Source: a virus (taxonomy: Duplodnaviria; Caudoviricetes). Taken from it: 64,000 nucleotides of DNA. The notes beneath the pieces were generated by a model. That model searched no databases. It worked only from the letters and a program-made list of their open reading frames with translations, and was not told the origin of the DNA. Both the position numbers and the translations under genes were made by a program. Positions 2,616-53,957 of this stretch are shown piece by piece. Position 1 is the stretch's first letter; each line of letters opens with the position of its first letter. The stretch spans positions 18,803 through 82,802 of the IMG/VR virus record IMGVR_UViG_2913820460_000006. One strand, 5' to 3'.

Positions 2616-4586
2616 ATGCATATAAATAAAAGCGAAAGAAAATTGCTGCCAATGAGCCGTATAGCTCCGGGAAGAAATGATGCCGCCGAGATAGATACTG
2701 TTGTTTCTGCAAAACGTTATGGTGACCGCAGGGCATTTGACATTCTTATGGAAGCACAATACTATTGGAGCCAGATGGACGACTTTCGGAAAGACCGGGA
2801 GCGAAACAAACGCTATACCTATGGTTTCCAATGGGACGATATGATTTGTGTGGACGGAAAATCCATGAGCGAGGAAGAATACATTAAAAGTCAAGGCAAC
2901 GTGCCTTTGAAAAACAACCTTATCCGTAGGCTTGTGCGAAGCGTGCTTGGCGTGTATCGAAGCCAAAGTAAAGAACCGACCTGTACCGCACGTGATCGGG
3001 ATGAACAGAAACTTGGTGAAACGATGAGTACGATACTTCAATGCAACATGCAGCTTAACCGAATGAACGATGTATATGCCCGAACTATGGAAGAGTTCCT
3101 GATAAGCGGTTTTATCGTTCACCGTAAATCGTACGGTTGGCGTAATGGAAAAGAGGATTGTTGGACGGACTATGTGCAACCCAATAATTTCTTTATCGAC
3201 AACAACATGAGAGATTTCAGAGGTTGGGATGTTTCCGTGCTTGGAGAAGTTCACGACATTTCTTTCGGACAGTTGTGTGAACAGTTCGCATCAAGTCCGC
3301 AGGAATACAGACAATTGCGTGACATTTACAAGTGGGCGGCAAGGAAAGATTACATAGCCACATACGCGGAGCGTTTCGGGTATAGCCGCTTGGAAAACTA
3401 CGATTTTCTATTCACAAGCGAACCAGGACGATGCCGTGTGATAGAGATATGGCGCAAGGAGCAAAAACCGAGATACCGTTGCCATGACTACCAAAACGGC
3501 GATATTTTCAAAATAGACGAAGAAGATTACGCACAAGTGGTGCTTACTGAAAATGAAGAACGTATGCGTATGGCCAAGGAAGCCGGTATGCCGGAAGATG
3601 AGGTTCCGTTGATAAAAGCTACTTGGTTTGTGGACGATTATTGGTATTTCTATTACCTTTCTCCTTTTGGCGACATATTGAGGGAGGGGGAAACGCCTTA
3701 CGAGCATGGAAGCCATCCATATGTTTTCAAGGCATATCCGTTCATTGATGGTGAAATCCATTCATTCGTTGCTGATGTAATCGACCAACAGCGATATACC
3801 AACCGATTGATAACCCTCTATGACTGGATAATGCGGGCGAGTGCCAAAGGCGTGCTGATGATGCCCGAAGATTGCTTGCCTGATGGTATGAGCATTGACG
3901 ATATTGCAGAGAGCTGGACAGAATTTAACGGTGTCATCGTATACAAGCCGAGCAAAAGCGGAAAAGTGCCGGAACAGGTGGCCAATAATTCCACAAATAT
4001 AGGCATTGCGGAACTGCTTAATATGCAACTCAAATTTTTTGAAGATATATCGGGAGTTACGGGCGCATTACAAGGAAAGCCCGGGTATTCCGGTGAAAGT
4101 GCATCGCACTATAACCAACAGACAGAAAACGCCACGAAGTCATTGCTCGACCTGCTTGAATGCTTCAGTTGTTTTGTAGTGGACGGAGCATATAAGGATG
4201 TGAAGAATATGCAGCAGTTTTATGATAGCAAACGTGTTTTCAATATTGCAGGTAAGAGTGGTGCACAAATCGAATATGACCCGAAGAAAATACGTGATGT
4301 AGAATTTGATTTAAGCATTACCGAAAGCACTTCAACACCGGCATACAGGCATCTTGCTAACGATATGCTTATGCAGTTGTACCAGTCTCAGGCAATCAGT
4401 GTAGAGCAGCTGCTTGAGCATGGAGATTTCCCGTTTGCAGATGAATTGTTGCAAAGTATCAAATCACAGAAGGAACAGTTGGAGCAGGGCAAAGTGCCCG
4501 ACGGTCTTTCTCCCGAACTGATGGCGCAAGCGCAGCAAGGAGCGAATATGCAGGCCGTGAACAAACTGAACAATGCAATGAGGTAA
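2616..4586 (+). CDS. Phage portal protein (P22/podophage-like)
   Basis: 656 aa, helical; RDRERNKRYTYGFQW, NLIRRLVRSVLG and DQQRYTNR segments are typical of P22-like portals; lies next to the terminase. Confidence 0.8.
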   Translation: MHINKSERKLLPMSRIAPGRNDAAEIDTVVSAKRYGDRRAFDILMEAQYYWSQMDDFRKDRERNKRYTYGFQWDDMICVDGKSMSEEEYIKSQGNVPLKNNLIRRLVRSVLGVYRSQSKEPTCTARDRDEQKLGETMSTILQCNMQLNRMNDVYARTMEEFLISGFIVHRKSYGWRNGKEDCWTDYVQPNNFFIDNNMRDFRGWDVSVLGEVHDISFGQLCEQFASSPQEYRQLRDIYKWAARKDYIATYAERFGYSRLENYDFLFTSEPGRCRVIEIWRKEQKPRYRCHDYQNGDIFKIDEEDYAQVVLTENEERMRMAKEAGMPEDEVPLIKATWFVDDYWYFYYLSPFGDILREGETPYEHGSHPYVFKAYPFIDGEIHSFVADVIDQQRYTNRLITLYDWIMRASAKGVLMMPEDCLPDGMSIDDIAESWTEFNGVIVYKPSKSGKVPEQVANNSTNIGIAELLNMQLKFFEDISGVTGALQGKPGYSGESASHYNQQTENATKSLLDLLECFSCFVVDGAYKDVKNMQQFYDSKRVFNIAGKSGAQIEYDPKKIRDVEFDLSITESTSTPAYRHLANDMLMQLYQSQAISVEQLLEHGDFPFADELLQSIKSQKEQLEQGKVPDGLSPELMAQAQQGANMQAVNKLNNAMR

Positions 4587-5714: not shown

Positions 5715-7811
5715 TTATATTGTAGCTGCTGAAACAGCTTTTTTCTTTTTGATAACAAATCGTCCGATACGAAGCACAATCTTTGGAATTTCCATTTCAA
5801 AGAAACATATATGCAAGCCTATGGCTCTTGTCATTAGCAAGTCATCATGTTTACCGGTAATCGCTCCGAAAGCTCCGTTCGGTTTTTTCTCGTAACACAA
5901 ATATTCGTCCAGGCAACGTTCGTCACGTTCTGTGTATAAATTCTCACGAATAACCTTGACTAAGGTTGATATAATCATTGGTTTGGTTGAGACATTGGTA
6001 TGGAAGCCGTATTTGGTAGGCAATCCCTCGCGTACGGCTTCTTCGGACTGACCACGTGCATAGAGATTAGGGTAAATCTCTTTGATTTGATTAAGGATGA
6101 ACTGTGACTGGTCGCCATCTACCTGCCGCTCCTTGTCATGCGTTTCCAAGGTGTTGCTTTCTATCACCAAGAGTGAATTGTCATAAAAAGCCGCTATTTG
6201 TGCCGCTTTCCACGCAAGCTGGTCGATGTCGCAATGTCCGTACCATTGTGCCACTACGACAGGCTTGCCACCATCAATCATAAACAGACGGTCAAGCACA
6301 AGAACAACAGAGAAGTCTGCTTTATTGGAGCGTCCACCCACATCGACAATCGTGAGGTAACGATTTGTAACAACTTCCTTTTCATCTGTTTCCGGCAACT
6401 CCCAAATATGCAACAATCCCTGTTTGTCTTTCACAAAACGCAAGTTCTGCAAAGCGTTCTTGCCCTCATCCGCATCGGCACAGACTTCACCGACATATTT
6501 AGGTTTCTTGCAGGTCTTACGCATTGCATCGACCTTGTATTTGTCGAACACACGTGCTCCCGAATGTACGAAGGCTTCCACATCATCAGACGGAAATTCG
6601 GCAGCCATCTGCCCATGGTCATTGTACTTCCTGCGTTCGGCTATGTACCAATGGATAGCTTCGAGCGTAGCACCTTTTTCCCACAGCGACCAAAGATACT
6701 TACCGCATTCCTCACGTTCGGAATCTGTATTTTCATTGTCCCGATTCTGATAAAGCCATTCTGCAAAATCCCATTTTTCTTTGTCCGAATCAAAAGCGAG
6801 TGTATATTGCTCGATGTCGAACCATGAAACGAACATTGCCTCGAACTGGGATTTCCCTTCTTTTGCGGCAGTATATTCGCGATGAAAGAAGTTCCCGGTG
6901 CCATTTGCTGTGCTTTCATAAACAATCATGGTGTAGGGCTTGAGGAGAATACCCGAACAGGCGGAGCGCACAATGTCTTCCGGTTTCTTTCCCTCCGTAG
7001 CCTTCCATATTCCCACTTCGGAGAGATGTACAAGATTGTAATCACCGCCACGACACGAATCCGGGCGTTCAGCCGTACCAATCTTGATTTTGCAGTTACG
7101 CTGCGGAATACGCGATATACTTCCCGATTTTCCCACTCCTACAATCTTCGGCTCGTTCTCATTGTAGGCTTCATCAATTTTATAGAGCATTTCGACAGGA
7201 TAACTTTTAATCATCCGGTCGAACATATCCTTGATTTCATCGGAGCCTGCGCCCTGATGTGCAATGATAAGTGAGTTTAAGCCGGTTTTGTGAAGCAGCT
7301 GCAACCATGCCATATAAAGCTGTGAAGTGGTGGAACCACCCCATTGCCGTGCTTTAAGCAGGATGATGCGTATCGGTTTCCCTGCAATACGCAATTTCTC
7401 AAGCCGATCCACAAAACGCCGTTGAGGTCTTGTCAGACGAAACAGGACATCCTCACCGCCGCCTTTGGCCTTGATATAGACAAATGTTGCCGCCCAAAAC
7501 GGAAAATCCTCGCGGCTGCGTATTCGTACAAACTGCTCTATGACCTTCAAGCGATCATCCTGATTGTCTTCCACGCCCATGTAGTCCGTGAGAAATTTGG
7601 AAATAGAACCGGCTTCGATGAGTTGGCGTACAAGCGGCACTTTCATGATACGTTCCGGTAACCACTGGGTATGTATAGGAAAGTCACTGATGGTACACTT
7701 TACACGTTTACCGACAGAACCTTCTCCGGTAATTGGATTGAACTTTGCATATACAATCGCATTGCGGCGTTCATTCTCTGTCAATATGTCCTTGATGGCC
7801 TTATCTTTCAT
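5715..7811 (-). CDS. terL: Terminase large subunit
   Basis: Walker A-like ILLKARQWGGSTT, Walker B-like LVHLSE, ESTANG motif, nuclease acidic motifs IVDVGG and HDDLLM. Confidence 0.93.
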   Translation of the reverse strand: MKDKAIKDILTENERRNAIVYAKFNPITGEGSVGKRVKCTISDFPIHTQWLPERIMKVPLVRQLIEAGSISKFLTDYMGVEDNQDDRLKVIEQFVRIRSREDFPFWAATFVYIKAKGGGEDVLFRLTRPQRRFVDRLEKLRIAGKPIRIILLKARQWGGSTTSQLYMAWLQLLHKTGLNSLIIAHQGAGSDEIKDMFDRMIKSYPVEMLYKIDEAYNENEPKIVGVGKSGSISRIPQRNCKIKIGTAERPDSCRGGDYNLVHLSEVGIWKATEGKKPEDIVRSACSGILLKPYTMIVYESTANGTGNFFHREYTAAKEGKSQFEAMFVSWFDIEQYTLAFDSDKEKWDFAEWLYQNRDNENTDSEREECGKYLWSLWEKGATLEAIHWYIAERRKYNDHGQMAAEFPSDDVEAFVHSGARVFDKYKVDAMRKTCKKPKYVGEVCADADEGKNALQNLRFVKDKQGLLHIWELPETDEKEVVTNRYLTIVDVGGRSNKADFSVVLVLDRLFMIDGGKPVVVAQWYGHCDIDQLAWKAAQIAAFYDNSLLVIESNTLETHDKERQVDGDQSQFILNQIKEIYPNLYARGQSEEAVREGLPTKYGFHTNVSTKPMIISTLVKVIRENLYTERDERCLDEYLCYEKKPNGAFGAITGKHDDLLMTRAIGLHICFFEMEIPKIVLRIGRFVIKKKKAVSAATI

Positions 7812-8319
7812 GGTGCATGATTTTAACAGGCTTGTTTAGCAGAGCCATGATGAGTCCCAATACATAACACCAAAGATGCAATACGGCATTTATGCCCGGA
7901 AACAGGAAGCCTGCCACAAGGTAAAACAGCATCCATAACTGATAATACCGTTTACGTAATACCTCAAACGATATTGAACCAAACAGGGCGAAAACCAATC
8001 CGGACAATCCTACCGTTGGCGAATCCATTGTCGTGAAATATCCAAGGGTATCAACTGGAACTGTAACAGCAATCATATAGGCTGACAGCAATCTTCCTAT
8101 CCCAATATCGTAAATGAAAATAATCGATAATAAACACCATGAATTGAGCAAGGCATGAAACATATTCGTATGGAAAAACGGATACAGCAAGCGTTCTGGC
8201 ATATTACTTCCAGCGTAAATGCCGACAGTTTGCCAATCCCATTCTCCTGAAAATGACAAACACACAATCATGGCAGAAATCAGGAGAGCCGTAATCTTCT
8301 CAACTTTTCTTGCATCCAT
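7801..8319 (-). CDS. Rhomboid-family intramembrane serine protease
   Basis: Multi-TM 172 aa; RLLYPFFH (WR/FxH loop equivalent), HALLN (HxxxN), catalytic GLSG and a distal His (VLHLW); stop overlaps the terL start. Confidence 0.8.
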   Translation of the reverse strand: MDARKVEKITALLISAMIVCLSFSGEWDWQTVGIYAGSNMPERLLYPFFHTNMFHALLNSWCLLSIIFIYDIGIGRLLSAYMIAVTVPVDTLGYFTTMDSPTVGLSGLVFALFGSISFEVLRKRYYQLWMLFYLVAGFLFPGINAVLHLWCYVLGLIMALLNKPVKIMHHER

Positions 8320-8714
8320 CGTTTTTTAGCCTTGCATATCATCATCTTGGCACTACCCGGCGTGAGGTAGAATTTCGGTGCGGGTTGAGCAATCACTTTA
8401 GCACACAGCTCAGAAATGGTAAGTTCCGGGTATTCTGATTTGAGAGCGACAACCCTTGTATGAATTTCCTCATACATTTCTTTCTTCAACGGCCGCATAC
8501 CGCTTAAATCGTTCTCACCCCTCATCATGACGGAAACGACCAATGCTGCACGAATATCGCTGACCCAAAACCTCCGGGACGGCATGTTTACAATTACTTT
8601 ATACACTTCAGGCATACGGATATAATCACACGATGAAATGTATTCATCGTATGCTCTCATCAAGTCGTTCATACGCTCCATAGAGTATTCCATAACTGCT
8701 CCTTTATGCTTCAT
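8280..8714 (-). CDS. Hypothetical protein, possibly DNA-binding (small terminase or late activator candidate)
   Basis: First gene of the terminase operon; start moved to MKHKG (8714), downstream of the -7 box; basic C-terminus with a helix-turn-helix-like pattern. Confidence 0.55.
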   Translation of the reverse strand: MKHKGAVMEYSMERMNDLMRAYDEYISSCDYIRMPEVYKVIVNMPSRRFWVSDIRAALVVSVMMRGENDLSGMRPLKKEMYEEIHTRVVALKSEYPELTISELCAKVIAQPAPKFYLTPGSAKMMICKAKKRWMQEKLRRLRLS

Positions 8715-8734
8715 TTTTCTTCCCGTTATAGTAC

Positions 8735-8797
8735 CAAAGTTACCAATAGGAGCGTAAAAAGATAAACATGACATTCTGCTTTCCCTGCCTATTTTTG
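8735..8797. promoter_or_regulatory. Back-to-back divergent promoters (terminase operon / capsid operon)
   Basis: Minus-strand TAACTTTG (8742-8735) and plus-strand TATTTTTG (8790-8797), each exactly 20 nt from a central TAAACAT (8763-8769). Confidence 0.6.
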
Positions 8798-8834
8798 TCT
8801 TGTAGAATCTGACTATAAATTAAATTTTTGAATT

Positions 8835-9626
8835 ATGTCTAATAATACGGAAGTTAAGAGCAATCGCGAGCGATACACAGAGCGATTGAAAGCAAAGTAT
8901 CCGGACAGAGAATTTGCCGATGATGAAGCGTTATTCGGTCAAATCAATGACGATTACGATGGTTACGACAAGGAATTGTCCGGTTACAAGGAACGTGAAA
9001 AAGCGCTGTCCGACCTGTTTGCAAGCAACCCGCAAAGTGCCGCTTTCCTTACTGACTGGAGAAAAGGCGAAGACCCTATCATCGGTATGGTGCGCAAATT
9101 CGGGGATGATTTCAAGGCCGCACTTGAAGACCCCGAAAAGCAGGAGGCACTTGCAGCCGCCAACAAGGAATTTGCGGAACGAATCGCCCAAGAGAAAGAG
9201 TACGAGGGAGAGTATCAGAAGAACCTCGACGAAACCCTGACCACCCTTGAAGCCATGCAACAGGAAGAAGGATTGCCGGATGAGGACATCGACAGCGCAA
9301 TGGATTTCCTTGTAGGCATTGTACGTGACGGAATCATGGGTAAGTTTACACGTGAAAGTATAGAAATGGCCATAAAAGCAATCAGGCACGACAGCGATGT
9401 GGAAGCTGCCGGACACGAGGGTGAAGTAAAGGGGCGCAACAGCAAGATTGAAGAAAAACTACGCAAAGCAGGCAAAAATGACGGTACAGCCGACCTTGCC
9501 GGTAAAAACGGTGGTGGCAGTGGCGGTTCACGACAGATGCCTGACCTCGGTGCAATCGGGCGTTATGATGGTACACAGAACATTTGGGAGCGTGGCGGTG
9601 AAAAACGCAAGGCGATAAACAGATAA
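8835..9626 (+). CDS. Probable capsid scaffolding protein
   Basis: 263 aa, highly charged and helical, Gly-rich C-terminal tail, immediately upstream of the capsid gene. Confidence 0.6.
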   Translation: MSNNTEVKSNRERYTERLKAKYPDREFADDEALFGQINDDYDGYDKELSGYKEREKALSDLFASNPQSAAFLTDWRKGEDPIIGMVRKFGDDFKAALEDPEKQEALAAANKEFAERIAQEKEYEGEYQKNLDETLTTLEAMQQEEGLPDEDIDSAMDFLVGIVRDGIMGKFTRESIEMAIKAIRHDSDVEAAGHEGEVKGRNSKIEEKLRKAGKNDGTADLAGKNGGGSGGSRQMPDLGAIGRYDGTQNIWERGGEKRKAINR

Positions 9627-9667
9627 ATATAAACCAATTACATTTTTAACTTTTAAAATTTCGAGCA

Positions 9668-11110
9668 ATGAAGAAAACAATGAGTTTCTTTTGTCGCATT
9701 ACGCTGATGATATTGGCGTTTGTGACGGGTGCATCAAGCGGTGTCATGATGGCAGAAGCATCGAACCTGCCTGATGCGGGTAAAACAACAGCCGGTGCGG
9801 ACGGTACGGGTGGAACAGACGGTATTTCCACTGAAACAGGAGGGCGTGAAACCGGTGACCCAAATTTCTATTTGAGTGATGTGGACAAACGCATCGTGAA
9901 AATCCGTCCGATGGCTACTCCAATTGACCAAATCAGCCGTTATGCAAAATCAAGCTCCACCAATTCATTTGAAGTGAAGTATTACAGCGTGGGTACACGT
10001 GAAATCAAATGCAGTACCAACAAAAAGCTGGAAGCTATGCTCAGCGGTGCGAGCGTGTCGTTGCCGGTAGATGATTTGAATATGTTCACGTTGGATGATA
10101 CCATTAGGGTAGTCGGTGTCAGTGCCATCACCAAACCGGACGGAACGAAATATACGGAAGATGACAGCAACGTTCCGGACCTCGTGCTTTGTGTGTGCGG
10201 AAAGGACAGCTCAACAAATCTTCCTACAGTGTATGCCGTAAATGGCAAAATGGATGATTCAAGCAAACAGCCGATTCTTGTTCCGGAAATTCCACAAGGA
10301 ACAACGCTTGTACGCATGGGAAAAGCATGTGGGGAATTGGATGTTCAGACAGGACGATTCAATAATATCCCTATGCCTGAAACCCAGTATTGTCAGAACT
10401 TCATGATTCAGGTAGAGCAATCAACTTTTGACAAGATTGCCGCCAAAGAAGTGAACTGGAATTTCTCAGACATTGAAGAAGACGGTGTATATGATATGCG
10501 CCTCGCAATGGAAAATACTTATCTGTTCGGTGTGAAGCAGGTTATCAAGCACATTGCAAAGGACGGCATGAACACTTGGTTTACAGGTGGTATCTGGTGG
10601 ATGGCCGGAAAGGACATCGAGGTGGGCGAATGGGATACTGACAAGAAATGCGCCATAATTACCGATGAAAACCTTGTGGATATTACCAAAGACCTTTTTG
10701 TTGGTACCGGCATCGGTAACAAGCGTAAGATTTTATTTTGTGGAAGTGATATGCTCTCTGCATTCTCCAAGATAAAGAGCGAAAAATTCCGCTTGAAAGA
10801 TACCGTGGAGGTATGGAACTTGAAATTCAAATCTTGGGATACTGATTTCGGAGAAGTATTGACCATACATCATGAACTGTTCGATGTAAACGGAATGAGT
10901 GATTGCGGCTTTGCAATGGATCCGGAATATCTTTCCAAAAAAACACATGTGTCTTGGGCACGTAACGTACTCGACTTGCAAAAGGCCGGTATCCGCCGTA
11001 CCGATGCGGTAGTTATCCAAGAGGTGAGCTGCCTGTATCTGCGCTATGCAAAGGCACATGCACGTATGAGACTGGCTAAAGCACCCGCCCAAGATTTAAA
11101 TGCGGCATAA
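9668..11110 (+). CDS. Major capsid protein (SU10/DUF5309-like HK97 fold) with a hydrophobic N-terminal leader
   Basis: QYCQNFMIQVEQS, DMRLAMENTYLFG and WFTGGIWW segments match SU10-type capsids; follows the scaffold; followed by a terminator. Confidence 0.75.
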   Translation: MKKTMSFFCRITLMILAFVTGASSGVMMAEASNLPDAGKTTAGADGTGGTDGISTETGGRETGDPNFYLSDVDKRIVKIRPMATPIDQISRYAKSSSTNSFEVKYYSVGTREIKCSTNKKLEAMLSGASVSLPVDDLNMFTLDDTIRVVGVSAITKPDGTKYTEDDSNVPDLVLCVCGKDSSTNLPTVYAVNGKMDDSSKQPILVPEIPQGTTLVRMGKACGELDVQTGRFNNIPMPETQYCQNFMIQVEQSTFDKIAAKEVNWNFSDIEEDGVYDMRLAMENTYLFGVKQVIKHIAKDGMNTWFTGGIWWMAGKDIEVGEWDTDKKCAIITDENLVDITKDLFVGTGIGNKRKILFCGSDMLSAFSKIKSEKFRLKDTVEVWNLKFKSWDTDFGEVLTIHHELFDVNGMSDCGFAMDPEYLSKKTHVSWARNVLDLQKAGIRRTDAVVIQEVSCLYLRYAKAHARMRLAKAPAQDLNAA

Positions 11111-11700: not shown

Positions 11701-12339
11701 ATGGCTGTATATCAGAAGAACAAAATACAGGAGGATGTACGCACCGCCCTGGACCAAAACATGAACAGCGATACGTTGAAGATTATAGGCGATGTGGACA
11801 CTCTTGCACTTGACGACATCATTGCATCAAAGATTTTGGAAGCAGTAAAGCGTGTGCACAGCTCTGCACCGTCCTATTTGCTTGACGGCGGACACAACTT
11901 CGGTGATGCCATATATTGGAAAGAGCATGAAAGCGGATGGATATTACTGCCGGAAGATTTCATGCGTTTTGTCGTTTTCCAAATGAACGATTGGGAGCGT
12001 GCGGTATTTAATCCCATAAACACCGATGACCCTGAATATGAAAAACAGTCTTCCCGATTTAAAGGCATAAGAGGAACGTGTCAACGGCCTGTATGCGCCA
12101 TATCCATACGACCGGAAGGAAGAGTGATGGAATTTTATTCATGCAAAACGACAGAAGCGAAAGTGAGCCGTGCTGTATATCTGCCTTACCCGAAAATAGA
12201 CAAATATGGCGCGGTAGAAATCTGTGAGAAATGTTATGATGCTGTGATATATACCATAGCTGCATTAGTATTAACGACATTCGGCGATACGGAAAAAAGT
12301 GCCGCATTGAACGAATTGGCTAAATCTGTATTAATATGA
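11701..12339 (+). CDS. Probable head-tail adaptor/structural protein
   Basis: 212 aa between the capsid and tail fibre genes; stop overlaps the next start (ATGA). Confidence 0.5.
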   Translation: MAVYQKNKIQEDVRTALDQNMNSDTLKIIGDVDTLALDDIIASKILEAVKRVHSSAPSYLLDGGHNFGDAIYWKEHESGWILLPEDFMRFVVFQMNDWERAVFNPINTDDPEYEKQSSRFKGIRGTCQRPVCAISIRPEGRVMEFYSCKTTEAKVSRAVYLPYPKIDKYGAVEICEKCYDAVIYTIAALVLTTFGDTEKSAALNELAKSVLI

Positions 12340-15300
12340 GTTACGAATCAAAGCATATAGACGGTGATGTCTCCGTTGGTCGCAATACAGCGATAGGTGG
12401 TGACGCGACCGTTCAGGGAAAGACCCACTTGAAAGGAAACGTAATGGTGGACGGCTGGCTTGAGGCAAAAAATATCAAGGGAGTGAGCAAAGGACTGTTC
12501 ACGACCATCGAAAAACTGAAAGCGGCTTATCCTTTACCACATGACGGATGGTGGGCACTTGTGGGTGTTTCCTTACCAGCTCCCATATATGTGGGCGATG
12601 GCGGAGAATGGGTTCCGACCGGACAGAGTGGAGGCAACCCGACCATAGACAGCGGTCAGTATAACGAAGCCGTAGAAAAACTGCAAGAGGATATTACCAA
12701 ACTGCAGGACGACATTACGGATATAGAAGCCCGCAACAAAGCGCAAGACACCAACCTCACCACGCTTGGTGATAGTGTCAACTCGTTGCAAGACCAAGTA
12801 AACACGACCAAGGATACTGCAAACAAGGCAAACAACAAGGCGAATGAAGTTGGAAGCCAACTGAACTCTTTCAAAGAATCAAAAGGTGAAAACGGAGGAA
12901 TCGCCCCTCTTGACGAACAAGGGAAAGTACCGAGCCGACATTTGCCCGGATACATTGATGACGTGGTAGATTTTTATGGCATTTCCGTAGGCATTACTGT
13001 AAAAAATGAATCCATAGACAAAAATTCCAACGATGAGGGTTGTAAAGTTGTATATGATAAGGAACATGGTTGCTTTGTGCTTGCATACGTTCCGACAATC
13101 GGAGAATCCGAGACTGCTACTTATTATAACAACTGGTTGGATGCAGATGTTTTCGGTACGGCAAGTACAAACGGGCGAATACCCTCTTCCGGCAAAGTCT
13201 TTCTATGTGAAGAAGATGGAAAAAGTTATCGTTGGAGCGGTAAGCAACTGACTTCAATTGGCTCCGACCTTGCTCTCGGACATACAAGCTCTACTGCATT
13301 CCCCGGTGATGAAGGTGCGAAGTTACAGGAAGATATGAAGCAGGTCGAAGAAAACAAGAAGGCAATACTTTCACTCAATAAACAAGTCGTATCGCGTAGC
13401 GTTGTGAATGTCAATCATCTGTTTGACCTTTCAGATAGGGAGATAACATTTTCCGTAGCACTTGACAGGTGTGCGACTTCTGAATATGCTTCTGCTTTGC
13501 AGATTCCGGGTGTTGTCTTGATATTCCTTACAGAAGCCGGATGGGTTTCAAAACAATGGACAAATACCTCTGATTGGAGTAAAGAAAGCAACTGGACGGA
13601 TTTCGGGACTTCCGGTGGTGGAAACGTAGGCAACACCATCAACGTGAACGACCTTTGCGGAGATGGAGAATATACTTTGGGAACAGCCATAAAAGCTGTT
13701 GTTGACCTTGAGAAAGAAAGCGGGTTCTCTTATTTGAAAAGCGGTATCGTCCTTACATTCAAGACTGCGGAAAGTGATAAAAATGGCGCACCTGTATGGC
13801 TTGCCTATCAGTTCACACGCGATAAGAGTGACATCAGCCCTGATGATCTGAAACCGTGGGTAGCATTCGGCAGTGGCGGAAGCAAGGTGGAAACATCCGA
13901 CAAACCGGCAGAGGGAGGAAAAGATGCCCTTTCCACAGGCGGGGCATACATAATGCAGGAGAAAGCTATCGGCGGATTTGATGAAGAAAGTGATGAAGAC
14001 TACATTTACTACAAAGCCACCAATCTGAATGGCGGACAGATAGAGGATATTGTGCTTAAAATACCCAAAAATGGAGGTGGTGGCGGCTCCAGTGAGGATA
14101 GTACATTGTCTATCTACTTCGAGGAAGCCGCTCCTATTATGGCATTCGGCTCAGAGATAAAAATCAATGTAGCTTTGCGTAGTGTCAGCTATCCTGATGG
14201 TAACGAGGTGCTTGGTGTCATTCGTAACATCACTATTATTGATGCAAGCACCGGACTGACATTATCCAGTGAGGATATGAACACTGTAGGCTCTGCAAGT
14301 GCGACCGATTACAAGTTTGAACTTGACTTCACAAGTTATTTCAGCAGTGCCGCCAGCAAAAGCTTCTTTGTGCAAGCTACAGATTCGGATGGAAATACCA
14401 AGAAAAAAGCCATTACCATTATGGCTGTGGATATTACCGTAGAACAACCCATGGCTTTGAATTACACAAGTGATACTATCCTTGTTGCAGGTGGTCCGGC
14501 AAAAAATATCGGACAATTCTATAAATTCCCTAATAACACTTCATCCATTCTTGCAGTAGTGGAGATGTTCTATAATGGAGAATGGAAGAAACTTGGTGAA
14601 GCAACGGTAAGCGACAGTTATACCAAAGGCATCTCTGTCAATCCAACAAATGTATTCGGTGGCGGAGAAAGACTTTCGCATGGCGCATATCCTGTACGAA
14701 TATACGGTACGGAGAAGAAATCCGGAGTAAAGGGAAACACCATCTATTCCGCTATCATGTGTGTGGACGAAAACAGTAATACTCCCATCGTCGCCATCAG
14801 GTTCAATGACAAGAACAACGGCACGTTACGTTTATATGACAACCTTACCGTAGAGGTGGCTGCGTATACTCCCGGCAAGACTGAAACGCATGTAGATGTT
14901 TTCTACAGCGAGGAGAAAGTTACAGCTGTGGAAGCTATGATTGCCGAAACGGTTACAGTGAACAAGCAGATAAGCGGATATAGTACGGACGGAAGCCAAA
15001 GTATTACCGTACATGCCGAAAGTGGCGGTGTATCCACCAATGAAATCAAGGTTACGATAAAAGGGAGTGCCATTGATATAGCGATCAAGGACGGTGCTTT
15101 GTTCGGATATGATTTTTCTACACGTAGCAACAGTGAGAGCGATCATACTATCACACATAACGGAGTGACAATGGATGTACGAGGTGCAAACTGGTCAAGC
15201 AACGGATTTGTAGACTTTCTTAAGGAGCGTTCTTTGCGTATTGCAGAAAATGTAACAGCTGAAGTATTGGATTACCATCCTTTTGGAAACGCATCAGTGG

Positions 15301-18300
15301 AAACTACGAGCGGATGTGCCATCCAATTTGCCTTTGCCACCAAAAATATCAAGGAAGCTGATTCAAAGCTGATAGAATGCTATGACCCTGATAGCGGAGC
15401 CGGTTTCTATGTCTGTGGAAATAAAGCTGCGATATACTGCAAGACCGGACAACCGGCTTTGGTGGAACGCTCATTCCGACAAGGTGAAAAAATTACCATG
15501 GCCGTAGTTGTAGAACCATCTACCATTTATGTATCACGTGGGGGAAGCAATTATTCCTGTATCAAACTGTATTTGAATGGTGAAGAGGTCGGCTGTATAG
15601 GATATATCAGTAATAGCGGTGCTATCCTTAATTCAAAAACCATAACATTTGACGGAACGGAAGGAGACCTGTATTTGTATTATGTACTTGCCTACAACAG
15701 TCATTATGAATGGGCGCAAGCTTTTAGAAACTATTTGTGCAAGTTGACTGATACTTCAGCAATGATACAGGAGTATGAAGCGGAGAATGTGCTTGATACA
15801 CAGAATCGTCCGACAATAGAAGCCCTTTCCGCAAAAGGCATACCTTATTATGTGGTCGTGTCAGACCAGCAAACCTTTGACACGTTTGACGGTGATATTG
15901 ATACAAGCAAGAAGTTCAAATGTACGTTGTTCTATTATCATCCGACTATGCCGTGGAGAAGTTTTAAGGCTATCAATGTGCAATGGCGCAGGCAGGGAAC
16001 CACTTCGGCAAAACGGCCTATCAAGAACGACCGTTTCTATCTTCAAAAGAATGATGGTTGGGAGGTAACTCCTATTTATCCGGATTATGACAGTGAAGAT
16101 GCTCAAATATCATATAAACTGATGAAAATAGGTTATGTCCGTGTAGGCGAAGATTCTATTCCGGTAAAAATAATAACGGTGAAAGTGGATTATTCCGACA
16201 GCTCCAATGCCAACGACTGCGGTGTGTGCGGTTTGATGAATGCCACATTTCGTGCACTCGGAAGTAATTACCTGACTCCCGCTCAGCGTTCATTCGATGG
16301 AACTTGGGCAAAGAGTGACATATCATTAAAGGGATTGGAAATGAATCACTCGACAGCCAATCATCCCATTGCCGCATTCCGTGCTACACAGGAAAGCTTG
16401 ACAGACGCATGGTTTCATGCAAAAGGAAACTGGAAAGAGGATAAGGGAGAACAGGTTGCGCTTGGGTTTAAAGATACTCCCGGTTACAATAAAGGCTGCG
16501 TGAACTATGGAGATTTTGTGGAATATTTCGGACAAAATGGCGAAAGCCTCGACCAGATAGAAACACGTTTTAAGAATGATATTACCACCGATAAAGAAAA
16601 GCTTTATCTTCTTTCCCTATATTGCGGACAGGACTACCGGTTTATGTCATACGAACGGGGAGAGTGGACGCGACAAGCCGGAGAGATGAAGCAGGAAAAC
16701 GGCAAGTGGAAGATTACAGGCAAGGTCCTTAATCCGGTAAGCGGTTACGAATTGCTCACATATGATGGAATGAACTGGTGGCAAGGGGTTGGCAGCGTTG
16801 AAGATATGATGGAACCTACTACCGCAGAGTCCTCGTGGGTAACGAAACTCAAACTCGGACAGGATACTTATCCGATGTGGACAAGGTACTTTGAATGCAT
16901 GATAGACGATGACCAGCTACAGATAGACTTGGCTATGGGACGGAAAGTTCCTTATGACCTTTATCAAGTCCTGAAATTCTGTGATAGTTGCGATTATGCC
17001 AAGGAAGAACTCGCAGGGAAATGGCAGGAAATTTGGAAGACAGAGATGTGGAAATACATCAATCCGTACTCATTGGTTTCCTATTATCTTTTCACCGATT
17101 ATCTTGCCGCTGTCGACCAACAGGCGAAAAACATGCAACCGATGTTCTTCCTTGAAGACGGCTGCAGCGTCAAGGACGGTGTTTATAGCGGAGCAAACGG
17201 TATGGAAGCACGAAGAATGTATCTTAATAAAGTTTATGACTGTGATACCTGTAACGGTAAGGATAATGACGGCGGGCAAACCATTGACCCGGAAGTTGAC
17301 CCCGGTGACCTGACAAACAGTGCATACGCCGGAAGAGGAAGCGTGCTTTGGAATGATATACGTGGTCAGCAGACTATGGATGTAGACCAAAATGCCAATA
17401 CAATTACATTGCCTGCAATAGCAGATACGATGCGTTCGCTTCCCGATACACTTGGAATCGGTGCCGGACCGTTTTCTCCCAAGGGGGCTGACTATTATTT
17501 TGTAAAACAGATAATGAAAAAATGGCCTAAAGTTGTTTCAAGTTATGACGGAGAACGGAAGTATATCAAATATACAGGATATAACGACCTCTATTTCTAT
17601 GCATTGCAAGGGCTGGGGCTGACATCTCTTCCCGCTTTTATAGAACAACGCTGGCGCATCCGTGACGGATACTACCGCTGTGGGGATTTCAAGGCGGAAA
17701 GCGGTTATATTGGTGGACGTATCGGTGCAAAAGAAGGTGCAGTCATCAGATTTAAAGCGGCCAAGAGTGGGTATTTCGGTATCGGTAACGATAGTGGAAA
17801 CATTACACAGGGAATCTTTCTGAAGGCAGGGGAAAGCGGTACATTCACAGATTTCCAGCATGGGGAAAACATCATGCTGTACATATATCAGGCAGACCGC
17901 ATGAGCATGATAGATTTAAGTGAAGTAAGTATTGACCCTCAATTCGGGAATACCCTTTCAAAAATGTCGTTGCTACAGGAACTGTATCTCGGTAGTGAAA
18001 ATCATAAGGAATGGAAAATGTCGCCCGGAAACACCGGATTTCTTACCAATTTGGATTTAGGAGACATGCCGTTTCTCACTACATTGGATATTCGAAACAC
18101 GGAAATTATAACCGTCAATTGCTCAAAGTGTCCACGAATGGAGAGTGTGCATGCCGATAATACTTCTTTGTCTGCAATAACGTTTGCTGAAACTTCTCCG
18201 ATAAGTACGCTTGCCCTTCCCGGTACTATCACTGAACTTGTATTGAACAATCTGCCTAATCTGACTTATCCCGGCGGGCTTTCTCTTGGTGGTGTCAGTA

Positions 18301-20273
18301 AGGTTACAAAAATATTCGTGAATGAATGTCCGTATATTGATACGATGACTCTGTTGGAACAGGTGGTCAATGCAAGTGAATTGAAAACCGTCCGTATTCC
18401 CAACGTAAATGCTACGGCGAGTGTTGAAATGCTTCGTTCCATAAAAAACGGTGGGGCTATAGGATTGGATGCGAATGGTAATGCGTACGATGAAAAAGGA
18501 CAGTGTAGCGGAATAACCGGACGATGGATATTGGTCGAACTGATAGAGCAGAACGAAATCGAAGAGCTTGTCCGGTATTTTCCCCAACTTGAACTTCATA
18601 ATTCGCAGTTCTCTATTGTGAAAATCAGCGATACGGTAGACAATGATTCGTGTGAGAAGTATAGCAATCCCGAAAATAAGACGGGGGCGGATTATGGCAA
18701 CACATATATTCCAAGCGGGCATACCCTTGCCATCAAGAAAGGATGCCATGCCTATAAATGCTCATTCAACACGAAGAAAAACCAGATGGAAGGCGTGCAG
18801 TTAAGCGATACGGATTTCAACTACCTGAAAAACGGCAGCAGCTTTGACATAACGGACACCGCCGGAGAGGGCTTTGATATATTCTGGCATGCTCCGCACC
18901 ATTGGTACAAGGGAGTGAACGACTACAAGAACCAAGTAAAGTATTTTTTCCCTTCTATAACAGAGACCGAACCGCTCTCAACTGCATTGCATAGCAGAAA
19001 ATCCCTGTTGTCGGAATTGCTATATATGGAAAATACCGGAGTGTATGCGATTGATGCCGTTGTCGGTGAAGTCATAGGCGAGGATGTCATAACCACCGCA
19101 TCCAATACGAACAGCTACAAGATGGATGTGAGAGGAATGAAGCAGGTAAGATGGCCCGGTCTGAACCATGCCCGGCTTGGAGGCGTGTTCACTGACGAAA
19201 ACAACCGTGTGCTCAGTACGTTCATCATGTCTGTAAGCCATACCTATTTTGACTTCAACATCGGTGATTATGTGTTCTGTGACATACCTAACGGTGCAAA
19301 ATGGTTTTATTTCACTTCTTTCCGTGACATTGGCGACATAGAGTGCCTTGTTGTAGACAGCAGCAGTATTGAAGCCATAGAACCTGAATGGACCGAACAC
19401 ACGGTTGGCGACAACGACAGTCTGGTCGGTGTATATCCTATTACCGTTGACGGTTTGAAGATGCCACGCAGCCTTTCCGGTGATATACGTTCGAAGAAAG
19501 GCAACGGGACGTCCGTTACATCTAACGAATGGAAATACGACAGTGAGGGTAATCCTATTGAGATGCCTATCGGCGGTTTGAATTACACGGCAAAGGATTT
19601 CCAAAACATCTGCCGCTTACGTGGAGTTGGCTATCAGTTGCAGGATTACGAACAGCATAAAGAGATTAGCAATCTATGGTGGGCTTTGAGCGGAACAACC
19701 AACGAACAGTCGGTTGTGGGCAATGGCGGACATGACAGCATTCTGAATAAACTGGATTCCATTGGCATGGCTGACAGCAATAATACCGGCAATACGCTCA
19801 ACTCCATACTTGGATTGAAGCATTATGTGGGTTGTGATTCAGAATGGATGGACTATATCGCTTTTAATGTGCCGAGCTATGAAGCGTTCTACAAGGCAAA
19901 ATGCACGGAGAACGACAGTTCATATCCAATAGATTATACAGCGCATATTTATGACCCCGTAAACAAAACCGAACGGACTGTTAAAACAGTTGACGCTTCC
20001 AATGGAAATTGTGTCGTGCGCATAGTACATGGTGCCAAGTGCGATGTATTGCCCAGCAGAGTACACAAGGGAGATACAAGTATGTATGTAACACATTATG
20101 CAGCAGGATTTTGGATAAGTGGAAGCCGAGGCCGTTGTGTTTTGCGGTCCGGCAGCTACTCGTCTGCGAACAGCGGTCTCGCTTTTGCGGGCGCGAGCTG
20201 CGCTTCTTCGTACTCGAGCACGTACTGCGGGGCGCGTCTGGCCTTCCGCGGAAAATTCGTTATAATTGAATAG
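12336..20273 (+). CDS. Giant tail fibre/receptor-binding protein, DGR target
   Basis: 2645 aa: N-terminal coiled coil, two tandem ~70-aa repeats, a ConA/LamG-like region, a CotH-kinase-like region, leucine-rich repeats and a C-terminal CLec/FGE-type domain ending in the VR (...GARLAFRGK). Confidence 0.85.
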   Translation: MSYESKHIDGDVSVGRNTAIGGDATVQGKTHLKGNVMVDGWLEAKNIKGVSKGLFTTIEKLKAAYPLPHDGWWALVGVSLPAPIYVGDGGEWVPTGQSGGNPTIDSGQYNEAVEKLQEDITKLQDDITDIEARNKAQDTNLTTLGDSVNSLQDQVNTTKDTANKANNKANEVGSQLNSFKESKGENGGIAPLDEQGKVPSRHLPGYIDDVVDFYGISVGITVKNESIDKNSNDEGCKVVYDKEHGCFVLAYVPTIGESETATYYNNWLDADVFGTASTNGRIPSSGKVFLCEEDGKSYRWSGKQLTSIGSDLALGHTSSTAFPGDEGAKLQEDMKQVEENKKAILSLNKQVVSRSVVNVNHLFDLSDREITFSVALDRCATSEYASALQIPGVVLIFLTEAGWVSKQWTNTSDWSKESNWTDFGTSGGGNVGNTINVNDLCGDGEYTLGTAIKAVVDLEKESGFSYLKSGIVLTFKTAESDKNGAPVWLAYQFTRDKSDISPDDLKPWVAFGSGGSKVETSDKPAEGGKDALSTGGAYIMQEKAIGGFDEESDEDYIYYKATNLNGGQIEDIVLKIPKNGGGGGSSEDSTLSIYFEEAAPIMAFGSEIKINVALRSVSYPDGNEVLGVIRNITIIDASTGLTLSSEDMNTVGSASATDYKFELDFTSYFSSAASKSFFVQATDSDGNTKKKAITIMAVDITVEQPMALNYTSDTILVAGGPAKNIGQFYKFPNNTSSILAVVEMFYNGEWKKLGEATVSDSYTKGISVNPTNVFGGGERLSHGAYPVRIYGTEKKSGVKGNTIYSAIMCVDENSNTPIVAIRFNDKNNGTLRLYDNLTVEVAAYTPGKTETHVDVFYSEEKVTAVEAMIAETVTVNKQISGYSTDGSQSITVHAESGGVSTNEIKVTIKGSAIDIAIKDGALFGYDFSTRSNSESDHTITHNGVTMDVRGANWSSNGFVDFLKERSLRIAENVTAEVLDYHPFGNASVETTSGCAIQFAFATKNIKEADSKLIECYDPDSGAGFYVCGNKAAIYCKTGQPALVERSFRQGEKITMAVVVEPSTIYVSRGGSNYSCIKLYLNGEEVGCIGYISNSGAILNSKTITFDGTEGDLYLYYVLAYNSHYEWAQAFRNYLCKLTDTSAMIQEYEAENVLDTQNRPTIEALSAKGIPYYVVVSDQQTFDTFDGDIDTSKKFKCTLFYYHPTMPWRSFKAINVQWRRQGTTSAKRPIKNDRFYLQKNDGWEVTPIYPDYDSEDAQISYKLMKIGYVRVGEDSIPVKIITVKVDYSDSSNANDCGVCGLMNATFRALGSNYLTPAQRSFDGTWAKSDISLKGLEMNHSTANHPIAAFRATQESLTDAWFHAKGNWKEDKGEQVALGFKDTPGYNKGCVNYGDFVEYFGQNGESLDQIETRFKNDITTDKEKLYLLSLYCGQDYRFMSYERGEWTRQAGEMKQENGKWKITGKVLNPVSGYELLTYDGMNWWQGVGSVEDMMEPTTAESSWVTKLKLGQDTYPMWTRYFECMIDDDQLQIDLAMGRKVPYDLYQVLKFCDSCDYAKEELAGKWQEIWKTEMWKYINPYSLVSYYLFTDYLAAVDQQAKNMQPMFFLEDGCSVKDGVYSGANGMEARRMYLNKVYDCDTCNGKDNDGGQTIDPEVDPGDLTNSAYAGRGSVLWNDIRGQQTMDVDQNANTITLPAIADTMRSLPDTLGIGAGPFSPKGADYYFVKQIMKKWPKVVSSYDGERKYIKYTGYNDLYFYALQGLGLTSLPAFIEQRWRIRDGYYRCGDFKAESGYIGGRIGAKEGAVIRFKAAKSGYFGIGNDSGNITQGIFLKAGESGTFTDFQHGENIMLYIYQADRMSMIDLSEVSIDPQFGNTLSKMSLLQELYLGSENHKEWKMSPGNTGFLTNLDLGDMPFLTTLDIRNTEIITVNCSKCPRMESVHADNTSLSAITFAETSPISTLALPGTITELVLNNLPNLTYPGGLSLGGVSKVTKIFVNECPYIDTMTLLEQVVNASELKTVRIPNVNATASVEMLRSIKNGGAIGLDANGNAYDEKGQCSGITGRWILVELIEQNEIEELVRYFPQLELHNSQFSIVKISDTVDNDSCEKYSNPENKTGADYGNTYIPSGHTLAIKKGCHAYKCSFNTKKNQMEGVQLSDTDFNYLKNGSSFDITDTAGEGFDIFWHAPHHWYKGVNDYKNQVKYFFPSITETEPLSTALHSRKSLLSELLYMENTGVYAIDAVVGEVIGEDVITTASNTNSYKMDVRGMKQVRWPGLNHARLGGVFTDENNRVLSTFIMSVSHTYFDFNIGDYVFCDIPNGAKWFYFTSFRDIGDIECLVVDSSSIEAIEPEWTEHTVGDNDSLVGVYPITVDGLKMPRSLSGDIRSKKGNGTSVTSNEWKYDSEGNPIEMPIGGLNYTAKDFQNICRLRGVGYQLQDYEQHKEISNLWWALSGTTNEQSVVGNGGHDSILNKLDSIGMADSNNTGNTLNSILGLKHYVGCDSEWMDYIAFNVPSYEAFYKAKCTENDSSYPIDYTAHIYDPVNKTERTVKTVDASNGNCVVRIVHGAKCDVLPSRVHKGDTSMYVTHYAAGFWISGSRGRCVLRSGSYSSANSGLAFAGASCASSYSSTYCGARLAFRGKFVIIE
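20131..20240 (+). repeat. DGR variable repeat (VR)
   Basis: 110-bp copy of 21143-21252 with 15 substitutions, all opposite TR adenines; encodes the C-terminal residues of the fibre. Confidence 0.97.
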
Positions 20274-20304
20274 AGCGGACCTCGCGATTTCGAAAAAAGC
20301 GTTG

Positions 20305-20353
20305 GAGGGAGAGCCGTAGGCTGCTCCCTCTTTCTTTTTCTCGCGTAAGCGAG
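20305..20353 (+). promoter_or_regulatory. Hairpins downstream of the VR (DGR target-recognition cruciform and/or terminator)
   Basis: GAGGGAG-AGCC-GTA-GGCT-G-CTCCCTC followed by a T-rich run, then CTCGC-GTAA-GCGAG. GC hairpins just downstream of IMH are known DGR cis elements. Confidence 0.6.
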
Positions 20354-20397
20354 TCGATTTTTGAAACTAATTTTTATGTGGTTGTATTTTTGTCTGT

Positions 20398-20434
20398 AAA
20401 ACGTTCCATATATAGAACATTTTCACTATATTTG
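20398..20434 (+). promoter_or_regulatory. Promoter/operator of the TA pair
   Basis: Imperfect palindrome AAAACGTTC-N8-GAACATTTT (20398-20423) adjacent to the -7 box TATATTTG (20427-20434). Confidence 0.5.
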
Positions 20435-20454
20435 CATTGTGAATGATATAAGAT

Positions 20455-20799
20455 ATGGAATTGAAAACGAGATTCAAAGTAATAATGTCGAGTGAAGCCG
20501 ATGCATTTCTTGACACTCTGCGCCAAGACGTTAAGGATAAAATTATCTATAATGTAGATAAGGTAGCCAATGGTTATATGGACAAAGATTTATTCAAGAA
20601 ATTAGATGATACTGACATTTGGGAGTTTCGCACCCTGTATAAAGGTATTCAATATCGTCTGTTGGCTTTTTGGGACACCGACGCGGAAACGTTGGTCATT
20701 GCCACGCATGGATTTGTGAAGAAAACACAAAAGACCCCACGCAAAGAGATAAACAAGGCGGAAGCCGTCAGAATATTATATTTCAACTCAAAAAAATAA
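20455..20799 (+). CDS. higB: RelE/HigB-family toxin (Gp49-like)
   Basis: 114 aa; FKKL..TDIWEFRTLY...YRLLAF...IATHGFVKKTQKTPRKEI pattern; toxin-first order. Confidence 0.85.
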   Translation: MELKTRFKVIMSSEADAFLDTLRQDVKDKIIYNVDKVANGYMDKDLFKKLDDTDIWEFRTLYKGIQYRLLAFWDTDAETLVIATHGFVKKTQKTPRKEINKAEAVRILYFNSKK

Positions 20800-20803
20800 G
20801 TAT

Positions 20804-21115
20804 ATGGAAGCAATTAAATTTTATACCCTTGATGAAGTTAAGGATAAACATATAGGTGAGGTCGGTACACCGCACAGGGATAAGTATGAAGCTGAATTGC
20901 AATCATTTTTGATTGGGGAAGCCATAAAAAAAGCCCGTAAATCCCAAAACATGACCCAAGAGGAATTGGCACAAAAAATCGGTGTACAGCGTTCACAAGT
21001 ATCCAAGATAGAAAGCGGACGTAATCTGACCCTTTCCACCATTGCGCGAGTGTTTAAGGCCATGGGTATGAAGGCGTCTTTGAGTATTTCCGGTTTAGGA
21101 AGCATAACTCTTTAA
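20804..21115 (+). CDS. higA: XRE-family HTH antitoxin
   Basis: IKKARKSQNMTQEELAQKIGVQRSQVSKIESG HTH; starts 4 nt after the toxin stop. Confidence 0.85.
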   Translation: MEAIKFYTLDEVKDKHIGEVGTPHRDKYEAELQSFLIGEAIKKARKSQNMTQEELAQKIGVQRSQVSKIESGRNLTLSTIARVFKAMGMKASLSISGLGSITL

Positions 21116-21142
21116 AAAAATAAAAGGCGGACAATCCCTCGC

Positions 21143-21252
21143 GCCGTTGTGTTTTGCGGTCCGGCAACAACTCGAATGCGAACAGCGGTCTCGCTTATGC
21201 GAACGCGAACAACGCTTCATCGAACTCGAACACGAACTACGGGGCGCGTCTG
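21143..21252 (+). ncRNA. DGR template repeat (TR)
   Basis: AAC-rich (reads RSGNNSNANSGLAYANANNASSNSNTNYGARL); matches the VR except at adenines; directly upstream of the RT. Confidence 0.97.
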
Positions 21253-21361
21253 AAATTCTGTTGGTTAAATTAATCGGAGACCCTGCACAGGTACGAGATT
21301 ACCACCGCCATTCTCCGAGGGATTCGAGCCTCGGCAACAGCATGATAATATATATTTATTA

Positions 21362-23426: not shown

Positions 23427-23655
23427 ATGGCTCGGAATGAGTAACAGGTGGAAACACCTCATAGGAGGACTGATTATCGGCATTTTTGCATTTGGTTGGT
23501 TTACCGCAATGTATGCCGGAGTTTTGACAGCAGGTGCTTTGGAATATAAAGACAAGGTGCATGGCGGTAGATGGGATTGGATTGACTTTGGTCTTACAGT
23601 AGCCGGAGCAATGATAGGACAACTAATAGAAGGAACTTTAATATGGAACAACTAA
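23410..23655 (+). CDS. Small membrane protein (holin/antiholin candidate)
   Basis: 81 aa with 2-3 hydrophobic segments, upstream of the endolysin. Confidence 0.5.
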   Translation: MKKLIEWLGMSNRWKHLIGGLIIGIFAFGWFTAMYAGVLTAGALEYKDKVHGGRWDWIDFGLTVAGAMIGQLIEGTLIWNN

Positions 23656-24002: not shown

Positions 24003-24016
24003 CCAAATAAATAAGT

Positions 24017-49570: not shown

Positions 49571-49626
49571 GCAAGTTGTACCCTTGTCATTACAAAACAA
49601 GTTTTGTCCTCACAAGGGTCACTTGC
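49571..49626. promoter_or_regulatory. Candidate oriT (nested inverted repeats)
   Basis: Outer GCAAGT..ACCCTTGT/ACAAGGGT..ACTTGC and inner ACAAAAC/GTTTTGT, ~90 nt upstream of the mob accessory gene. Confidence 0.5.
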
Positions 49627-49713
49627 CGACTGCCGTGCAGCGGAGCGATGTGCATCGCTGTTTCGCTTCGCGAAAGAGGTGTCCGGGAATCCGAACAACT
49701 AAAGTCAAGGCAT

Positions 49714-53947: not shown

Positions 53948-53957
53948 AGAATCAATC

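Follow-up and report, generated by a model that had tools for sequence, protein, structure and literature searches.

A membrane-type leader on the capsid protein of a Bacteroides prophage and its possible link to a phage-encoded rhomboid protease

Phage heads with the HK97 fold are thought to be built from soluble cytoplasmic subunits, and a conserved membrane-type leader on a capsid protein clashes with this picture. A capsid protein with such a leader is encoded in a stretch of 64,000 nucleotides, hereafter the window, of the IMG/VR record IMGVR_UViG_2913820460_000006, where the cluster for head and packaging functions also encodes a rhomboid, an intramembrane protease. This 82.8-kb provirus record represents a Bacteroides prophage, and the window covers its right-hand 64 kb. 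The present analysis concerns the leader, the rhomboid and the proposal, made in an initial annotation of the window, that capsid precursors are tethered to the membrane and released by the phage enzyme. The closest cultured relatives are the temperate Bacteroides phages BKO1-TP3 and BF1-TP2, published in December 2025 (PMC12694917), whose capsid proteins are respectively 95% and 50% identical to that of the provirus, the identity at the DNA level being 79% for BKO1-TP3. The searchable literature yielded no report of a tailed-phage capsid protein with a membrane-type leader, nor of a head module that includes a rhomboid. In particular, the paper on BKO1-TP3 mentions neither rhomboid nor leader (PMC12694917), and in the Stenotrophomonas phages DLP3 and DLP5 a rhomboid is listed among non-structural genes with no function given.

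As far as the enzyme is concerned, the systems to compare are GlpG of E. coli and the AarA/TatA pair (MEROPS S54), which share with the phage rhomboid a core of six transmembrane (TM) segments, the HxxxN and GxSG motifs and a histidine in TM6. AarA of Providencia stuartii activates TatA by cutting off a short N-terminal piece beside a TM helix, and the recognition motif of this system (PMC2941825) fits V26-M-M-A29/E-A31 of the capsid leader (here and below, a slash marks a candidate cut). TatA, however, is oriented N-out, whereas the capsid leader is predicted to be N-in and its passenger is a cytoplasmic capsid fold of 410 amino acids (aa). Unlike GlpG and AarA, moreover, the enzyme is phage-encoded, has no extra domain and lies inside the terminase operon. 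Rhombosortase and its GlyGly-CTERM substrates (PMC6219818) likewise combine a rhomboid-family enzyme with a Gly/Ser-rich motif, a hydrophobic helix and a basic cluster, but the signal is C-terminal and N-out, so that the capsid leader represents its N-terminal mirror image.

With regard to capsid maturation, the HK97 gp4/delta domain, T4 gp21 and S49/ClpP-like systems likewise pair a capsid protein of HK97 fold that is extended at its N-terminus with a phage serine protease in the head module. These proteases, however, are soluble and packaged and act on soluble coiled-coil propeptides, whereas here the extension is membrane-like and the protease intramembrane. Another parallel is offered by M13 procoat and signal peptidase I, as this coat protein also carries a leader of n-h-c layout ending in A-x-A, which is cleaved, the protein being inserted into the membrane before assembly. 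The M13 coat is a membrane protein of 50 aa and its virion is extruded through the membrane, while a tailed phage must form its DNA-filled head in the cytoplasm. Finally, the initiation of the T4 prohead, with its gp20 portal and gp40, gives a precedent for a membrane-associated first step of head building, although there it is the portal and not the capsid protein that touches the membrane, and neither a leader nor an intramembrane protease takes part.

The capsid gene of the window and its parts are the following:

9668-11110, plus strand: capsid protein, 480 aa, with further virion genes downstream (Pfam SU10_MCP)
9668-9760, plus strand: leader, residues 1-31, with K2, K3 and R10 in the n-region, a hydrophobic helix, T20-G-A-S-S-G25 and V26-M-M-A29-E-A31
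9761-9874, plus strand: disordered Gly/Thr/Asp-rich linker, residues 32-69, with an AlphaFold2 (AF2) pLDDT<50, opening with the highly conserved S-x-L-P-D-A-G-K-T
9875-11110, plus strand: SU10-like capsid core of HK97 fold, residues 70-480 plus stop (PF17236, Foldseek)

The N-terminus quoted in the initial annotation, MKKTMSFFCR...MMAEA/S, coincides exactly with the start of the open reading frame (ORF) at 9668-11110, and the basic n-region, the hydrophobic stretch, the TGASSG break, the AxA site and the linker that it described are all present. The assignment to family and fold is firm, since residues 65-468 match Pfam SU10_MCP (PF17236, E=1.5e-29) and the AF2 model (pLDDT 85.8) consists of a helix at residues 2-19, disorder at 21-68 (pLDDT<50) and, starting near residue 70, an HK97 fold predicted with confidence. 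In Foldseek, the best solved match of this model is the capsid of Vibrio phage VP1 (E=5e-23), and the capsids of crAss001, SU10 and HK97 are matched as well. Judged from its residues, the leader has the n-h-c layout of a Sec-type signal, with K2, K3 and R10, the helix at 2-19 and small residues at -1 and -3. Two candidate cuts can be recognized, one at A29/E30 in a rhomboid-type motif and one at A31/S32 in the A-x-A of signal peptidase I. A lipoprotein reading, considered in view of the ..G-A-T-T-G-C.. of BF1-TP2, was dropped, as the cysteine is not conserved.

Conservation of the leader indicates that it is no artefact of choosing the longest ORF. All of the close homologues of the capsid protein (~120/~120) retain it, as does most of the family: a basic n-region followed by a hydrophobic stretch occurs in 101 of the 118 full-length sequences that represent 50%-identity clusters, with identities as low as 28%, and the leader is present in every bona fide phage member examined. 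Likewise, across codons 1-38 of the capsid gene, synonymous changes outnumber non-synonymous ones in comparisons with near relatives (9/4 and 6/4). Moreover, 115 distinct variants from the window's superclade share a consensus at the leader's end, G-A-S-[SG]-G-V-x-M-A-x-A-[ST]-x-L-P-D-A-G-K-T, whose named positions are 80-100% conserved; specifically, V26 is conserved at 86%, A29 at 92% and A31 at 87%, and the residue between the two alanines is variable. Across the family it is the hydrophobic character of the leader that is conserved and not its sequence, which points to a lipid-facing type of segment. On this comparative evidence the leader is real, translated, conserved and ancient, and it goes back to the ancestor of the entire phage family. 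In two loci (L003:5433-6980 and L004:1846-3375) a two-segment leader is preceded by an extra 70-80 residues, with an amphipathic start and then a Gly/Asn/Asp-rich low-complexity stretch, so that the membrane segment is internal rather than N-terminal.

The head and packaging genes are carried by two divergent operons, which include, besides the capsid gene, the following features:

7801-8319, minus strand: six-TM GlpG-like rhomboid protease, 172 aa (Pfam, profile, AF2/Foldseek)
5715-7811, minus strand: large terminase subunit terL, 698 aa (PHROG terminase matches)
8280-8774, minus strand: small conserved gene, phrog_27246, the first of the small gene-rhomboid-terL operon (PHROG)
8835-9626, plus strand: scaffold-like acidic protein, 263 aa, phrog_22323, directly upstream of the capsid gene (PHROG)
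2616-4586, plus strand: P22-like portal protein, 656 aa (Pfam P22_portal, E=4.4e-40)

That the rhomboid has its HxxxN, GLSG and histidine intact, as the initial annotation stated, is borne out by Pfam, by an alignment of 24 phage sequences and by the GlpG fold. The protein scores 35.9 bits against Pfam PF01694 (cut-off 22.6, E=1e-8) and contains H55xxxN59 (codons 8157-8143) in TM2, as well as the Ser-His dyad of the family, with G104-L-S106-G in TM4 (S106 codon 8004-8002) and H148 in TM6 (codon 7878-7876). H50, H55, G104, S106, G114 and H148 are invariant, and N59 is conserved in at least 90%, among the 24 phage rhomboids, which are 17-78% identical. A profile built from these sequences finds GlpG with E=1.5e-12, and the AF2 model (pLDDT 84.9) matches about 30 GlpG structures in Foldseek over its full length (probability 1.00, TM-score 0.59-0.66). 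By sequence and model, the rhomboid is catalytically intact and has a GlpG-like fold. It is not a rhombosortase, as its 27.2 bits against TIGR03902 fall far under the cut-off of 84. The charges of its loops predict an N-in/C-in topology and a periplasm-facing active site, the arrangement known from GlpG.

The start codon of terL lies within the last codons of the rhomboid gene, the two overlapping by 11 nt between stop and start (ATGAAAGATAA). The translational coupling of the two genes that had been claimed is consistent with this overlap, which is itself confirmed. The small gene and the rhomboid start overlap by 40 nt. A scaffold role for the 263-aa acidic protein would be suggested by its position and composition alone. 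The gene order is common to both cultured relatives. Wherever the rhomboid is present, it keeps a fixed position in the head and packaging operon, between the small gene and terL, on the opposite strand and 1.2-2.4 kb upstream of the capsid gene (24 lineages, with capsids diverged to about 30% identity), and a homologue of the small gene stands upstream of it in 23 of 24 rhomboid-bearing representatives. The idea that the small gene is specific to the rhomboid was rejected, as an iterative search places its family upstream of terL in seven rhomboid-less clusters; plain BLAST of the small gene against one small ORF of the clade designated A gave no match. The public labels of these genes in the cultured relatives are misleading: terL is called 'tail spike protein' in both (L001:2027-4141 and L002:1936-3963; GenBank PQ571269 and PQ571263), and in the BKO1-TP3 record the rhomboid is a 'glycoside hydrolase' and the capsid protein a 'DUF2951 domain-containing protein'.

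A gene for a prohead protease, as protease-dependent maturation of the HK97 type would demand, was not found among the families searched with working controls: nowhere in the 82.8 kb of the provirus record is there a match to Peptidase_S78, ClpP or S49. To this extent the earlier statement that the head module has no prohead protease stands; for the T4 type, the control of the S77 (gp21) search stayed silent, so its result carries no information. In the 95%-identical isolate BKO1-TP3, no protease appears in the annotation of the record.

A possibility is that the capsid protein is made as a precursor, in which a membrane-targeting leader of about 30 residues and a disordered linker of about 40 aa precede the HK97-fold core. 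The leader would tether the new capsid protein to the cytoplasmic membrane and would be removed before or during head assembly. In rhomboid-bearing lineages the rhomboid, expressed from the small gene-rhomboid-terL operon, would be the most likely enzyme to cut it, within V-x-M-A/x-A at the periplasm-facing end of the hydrophobic segment. The recognition motif of rhomboids, which has a large hydrophobic residue at P4, a small one at P1 and a hydrophobic one at P2' (PMC2941825), can indeed be read in V26-M-M-A29/E30-A31, with the helix breaker T-G-A-S-S-G just upstream. Three positive charges precede the hydrophobic stretch and acidic residues follow it; because of this distribution, and according to the positive-inside rule, the leader should sit N-in with V-x-M-A-x-A at the periplasmic face. 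Tailed phages fill their heads in the cytoplasm, which argues against export of the capsid core. Since a cytoplasmic capsid must be reconciled with a periplasm-facing active site, a loop geometry is proposed, whereby the leader goes up, the polar linker returns via a protein channel and, once cut, retracts to the cytoplasm. In rhomboid-less relatives a second hydrophobic arm could act as the return path, giving a hairpin anchor. Both the insertion of the leader into the membrane and its cleavage are inferred, as are the protease that acts on it and the shape of the loop.

For the central reading, that the phage rhomboid processes the capsid leader in rhomboid-bearing lineages, the provirus included, we estimate a probability of roughly 40%. 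A membrane step in head assembly looks likely, and the rhomboid may take part in it. The broader proposal, that this Bacteroidota phage family begins head assembly on the cytoplasmic membrane with the leader as a loop or hairpin, and that the rhomboid is the capsid maturation protease where present, should be considered doubtful as a whole. The release of tethered precursors by the rhomboid, as first put forward, is upheld only in part: the conserved membrane-like leader, the intact syntenic rhomboid, its confinement in the sample to phages with a leader and the lack of S78, ClpP and S49 matches speak for it, and rhomboid-less leaders and the N-in topology speak against it.

Several observations weigh against processing by the rhomboid. 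As regards topology, known bacterial rhomboid substrates are N-out, of type I or III (PMC2941825), and the leader is predicted from its sequence to be N-in, that is, type II; furthermore, were the leader to span the membrane just once with its N-terminus inside, the core would end up beyond the membrane, on the wrong side. A29 and A31 fit the A-x-A of signal peptidase I equally well, and the two lysis-cassette proteins with an N-terminal TM segment (23643-24002 and 24606-25154) could be the real rhomboid substrates. A maturation protease is unnecessary in many podophages. The distribution of the two elements points in the same direction. Around the relatives of the capsid protein, about 180 loci were screened by means of an iterated profile of the rhomboid, and whole records by means of Pfam; the capsid proteins were clustered at 70% identity into 57 clusters, and a rhomboid was counted when within 10 kb. 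Leader and rhomboid occur together in 24 of the 57 clusters, and in the other 33 the leader occurs without a rhomboid; homologous phages of the latter kind, which the initial annotation had named as an outcome refuting its proposal, are therefore numerous. In the sampled loci a rhomboid was seen only in phages with a leader-bearing capsid protein, so that the rhomboid implies the leader but the leader does not imply the rhomboid.

The rhomboid-less clusters split into two lineages. The larger is a clade of 31 clusters from phages of 48-73 kb, where none of 14 whole viral records, six of them with direct terminal repeats, matches the Pfam rhomboid (the control, a rhomboid-bearing record, gave E=3.5e-10). 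Three complete genomes of this clade encode no protein of at least 150 aa with at least four TM segments; the idea of an alternative intramembrane protease was rejected on this ground, and a substitute membrane protease does not seem possible in this clade. The second, small lineage (L007, L022, L005/6, L171 and L003) retains the leader as well. As over half of the sampled lineages keep the leader without it, the rhomboid is not generally required. Nor does the difference reflect a change of host phylum, a candidate that was rejected since the rhomboid-less relatives found in genome bins are mostly Bacteroidales or Bacteroidetes. A search for cultured members of the rhomboid-less clade returned none, only the two Bacteroides phages and remote capsids of 21-24% identity.

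The link between rhomboid and leader is kept alive by a feature that is new here, namely that rhomboid presence appears to co-vary with leader architecture. In rhomboid-bearing clusters the hydrophobic span has a median of 29.5 aa (interquartile range 23.5-31) and the linker to the core a median of 49 aa, as against 43 aa (41-50) and 29 aa in rhomboid-less ones. Specifically, the former span is made of a stretch of 15-17 aa, a G/S/D-rich break and 6-10 small or hydrophobic residues, and the latter joins one stretch of TM length to a second, Ala/Gly/Val-rich one through a short polar turn. Since the sum of span and linker is about equal in the two groups, the second hydrophobic arm takes the place of the first part of the linker. 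The difference gives a Mann-Whitney p of about 1e-7, computed on clusters that are not independent. Trees were made with FastTree and a quick IQ-TREE run. In the one based on the capsid core alone, the small lineage without rhomboid groups as sister of the window's superclade (SH-aLRT 98) and falls within the rhomboid-bearing half, which gives two independent contrasts, both in the expected direction. As further points against the reading, these are at most two contrasts, for which a sign test is not significant, and under the approximately unbiased (AU) test a rhomboid-bearing group of single origin is not rejected (p=0.12); such an origin would leave one contrast only. Because two contrasts cannot reach significance, and in view of the AU result, the co-variation is treated as suggestive.

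The capsid proteins that truly lack a leader make up a single clade within the small rhomboid-less lineage, and none of them is found in phages. They belong to four-gene cassettes (L180:9463-13632, L182:8885-12242, L181:943-4329 and L084:146-3281) in which a small ORF is accompanied by genes for the capsid protein (403-431 aa), for a product of about 170 aa and for a P22-like portal that is short, with 416-452 aa; the cassettes are surrounded by chromosomal genes of Bacteroidota type (SusC/SusD, RecJ, RecQ, AsnA). Within 10 kb of these cassettes no terminase, tail or rhomboid gene was found, and they could represent a domesticated capsid-portal module or a satellite.

A different explanation, possible although on the unlikely side, is that a host enzyme, most simply signal peptidase I acting at the A-x-A, removes the leader in all lineages, and that the rhomboid has another job, for example clearing leftover leader peptides or cutting a lysis protein or another phage or host membrane protein. 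The n-h-c layout, together with A29 (92%) and A31 (87%) around a variable residue, is what such an enzyme would call for. In the 33 of 57 lineages that keep the leader without a phage membrane protease, an activity of the host must be enough, unless no cleavage is needed; all hosts have rhomboid and general proteases, the Pfam control having matched 14 of 14 reference genomes including B. thetaiotaomicron, and the lysis cassette offers two N-terminal-TM proteins as possible rhomboid substrates. Signal peptidase I, however, works on the periplasmic side and thereby meets the same topology problem, and it requires no more than positions -1 and -3, whereas strong conservation extends to V26, M28 and L-P-D-A-G-K-T. 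The place of the rhomboid in the head and packaging operon and the difference in leader and linker length would also be left unexplained.

It is improbable that the leader stays uncleaved, as a membrane anchor or hairpin that concentrates the capsid protein at the membrane and is later extracted, to lie within the shell or on it, with the rhomboid unrelated to it. The two-segment leaders of 40-50 aa of rhomboid-less phages could well form an N-in/C-in hairpin, those lineages encode no protease, and SU10-, P22- and T7-like heads mature without proteolysis. Hundreds of hydrophobic helices per capsid would nevertheless be unprecedented, the conserved small-x-small motif and the long disordered linker resemble a processing site, and the same core is still formed by the leaderless relatives. 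Even weaker is the case for a functional capsid protein that starts at the internal Met27/28, with the long form as a minor or regulatory isoform. A Met at the position of M28 is conserved at 83% in the window's superclade, but purifying selection acts on the leader, which stays hydrophobic down to 28% identity. In addition, whole sublineages, such as the L143 group (..SVLFAEGAVDLPDAGK..), and many rhomboid-less leaders have no Met between leader and core, and the AT-rich spacer of 41 nt that precedes the first ATG is of the kind usual at Bacteroides starts; this explanation is very improbable.

Very few natural substrates of bacterial-type rhomboids are known. If the rhomboid cuts the leader, the capsid protein would provide a genetically tractable substrate, a natural one of type II or loop topology, and a new kind of capsid maturation, with the first membrane-embedded maturation protease known for any tailed phage. 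The phage family is abundant in the gut, the capsid protein having more than 2,100 database relatives, with one cluster of 2,033 member sequences. The cultured BKO1-TP3 and BF1-TP2 (PMC12694917) make the question directly testable, and the rhomboid-less sister clade, with its two-segment leader, represents a natural comparison.

As regards the remainder of the window, its 5'-open part (1-2550) encodes the C-terminal 849 aa of a giant protein beside the portal. The homologue in BKO1-TP3 is a single ORF of 5553 aa labelled 'DarB-like antirestriction', and the giant protein is probably an internal virion protein that is ejected. Positions 12336-22852 hold a virion protein of 2645 aa followed by a reverse transcriptase (21362-22852, RVT_1 E=1e-12), a pair that is likewise annotated in BKO1-TP3. 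Diversity-generating retroelements have been reported in these temperate phages (PMC12694917), and the pair probably represents such an element, diversifying the C-terminus of the 2645-aa protein. The lysis cassette (23643-25154) places an Amidase_3 endolysin (24017-24622) between two proteins with a single N-terminal TM segment each. The phage part of the window extends to the integrase, and past about 49 kb a conjugative transposon is found. These features are located as follows:

23643-24002: lysis-cassette flanking protein, holin- or spanin-like, 119 aa, one N-terminal TM segment
24606-25154: lysis-cassette flanking protein, holin- or spanin-like, 182 aa, one N-terminal TM segment
46735-48231: integrase
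50230-51825: conjugative transposon relaxase
52058-52912: conjugative transposon ParA-like protein
55497-58343: conjugative transposon TraG
62762-64000: conjugative transposon TraM

In the region from 49483 to 64000 the G+C content rises to 50-55%, and this region carries genes of a Bacteroides-type conjugative transposon. The provirus, with its integrase at 46735-48231, therefore adjoins or sits inside a conjugative element; IMG/VR classes the entire record as provirus despite this part.

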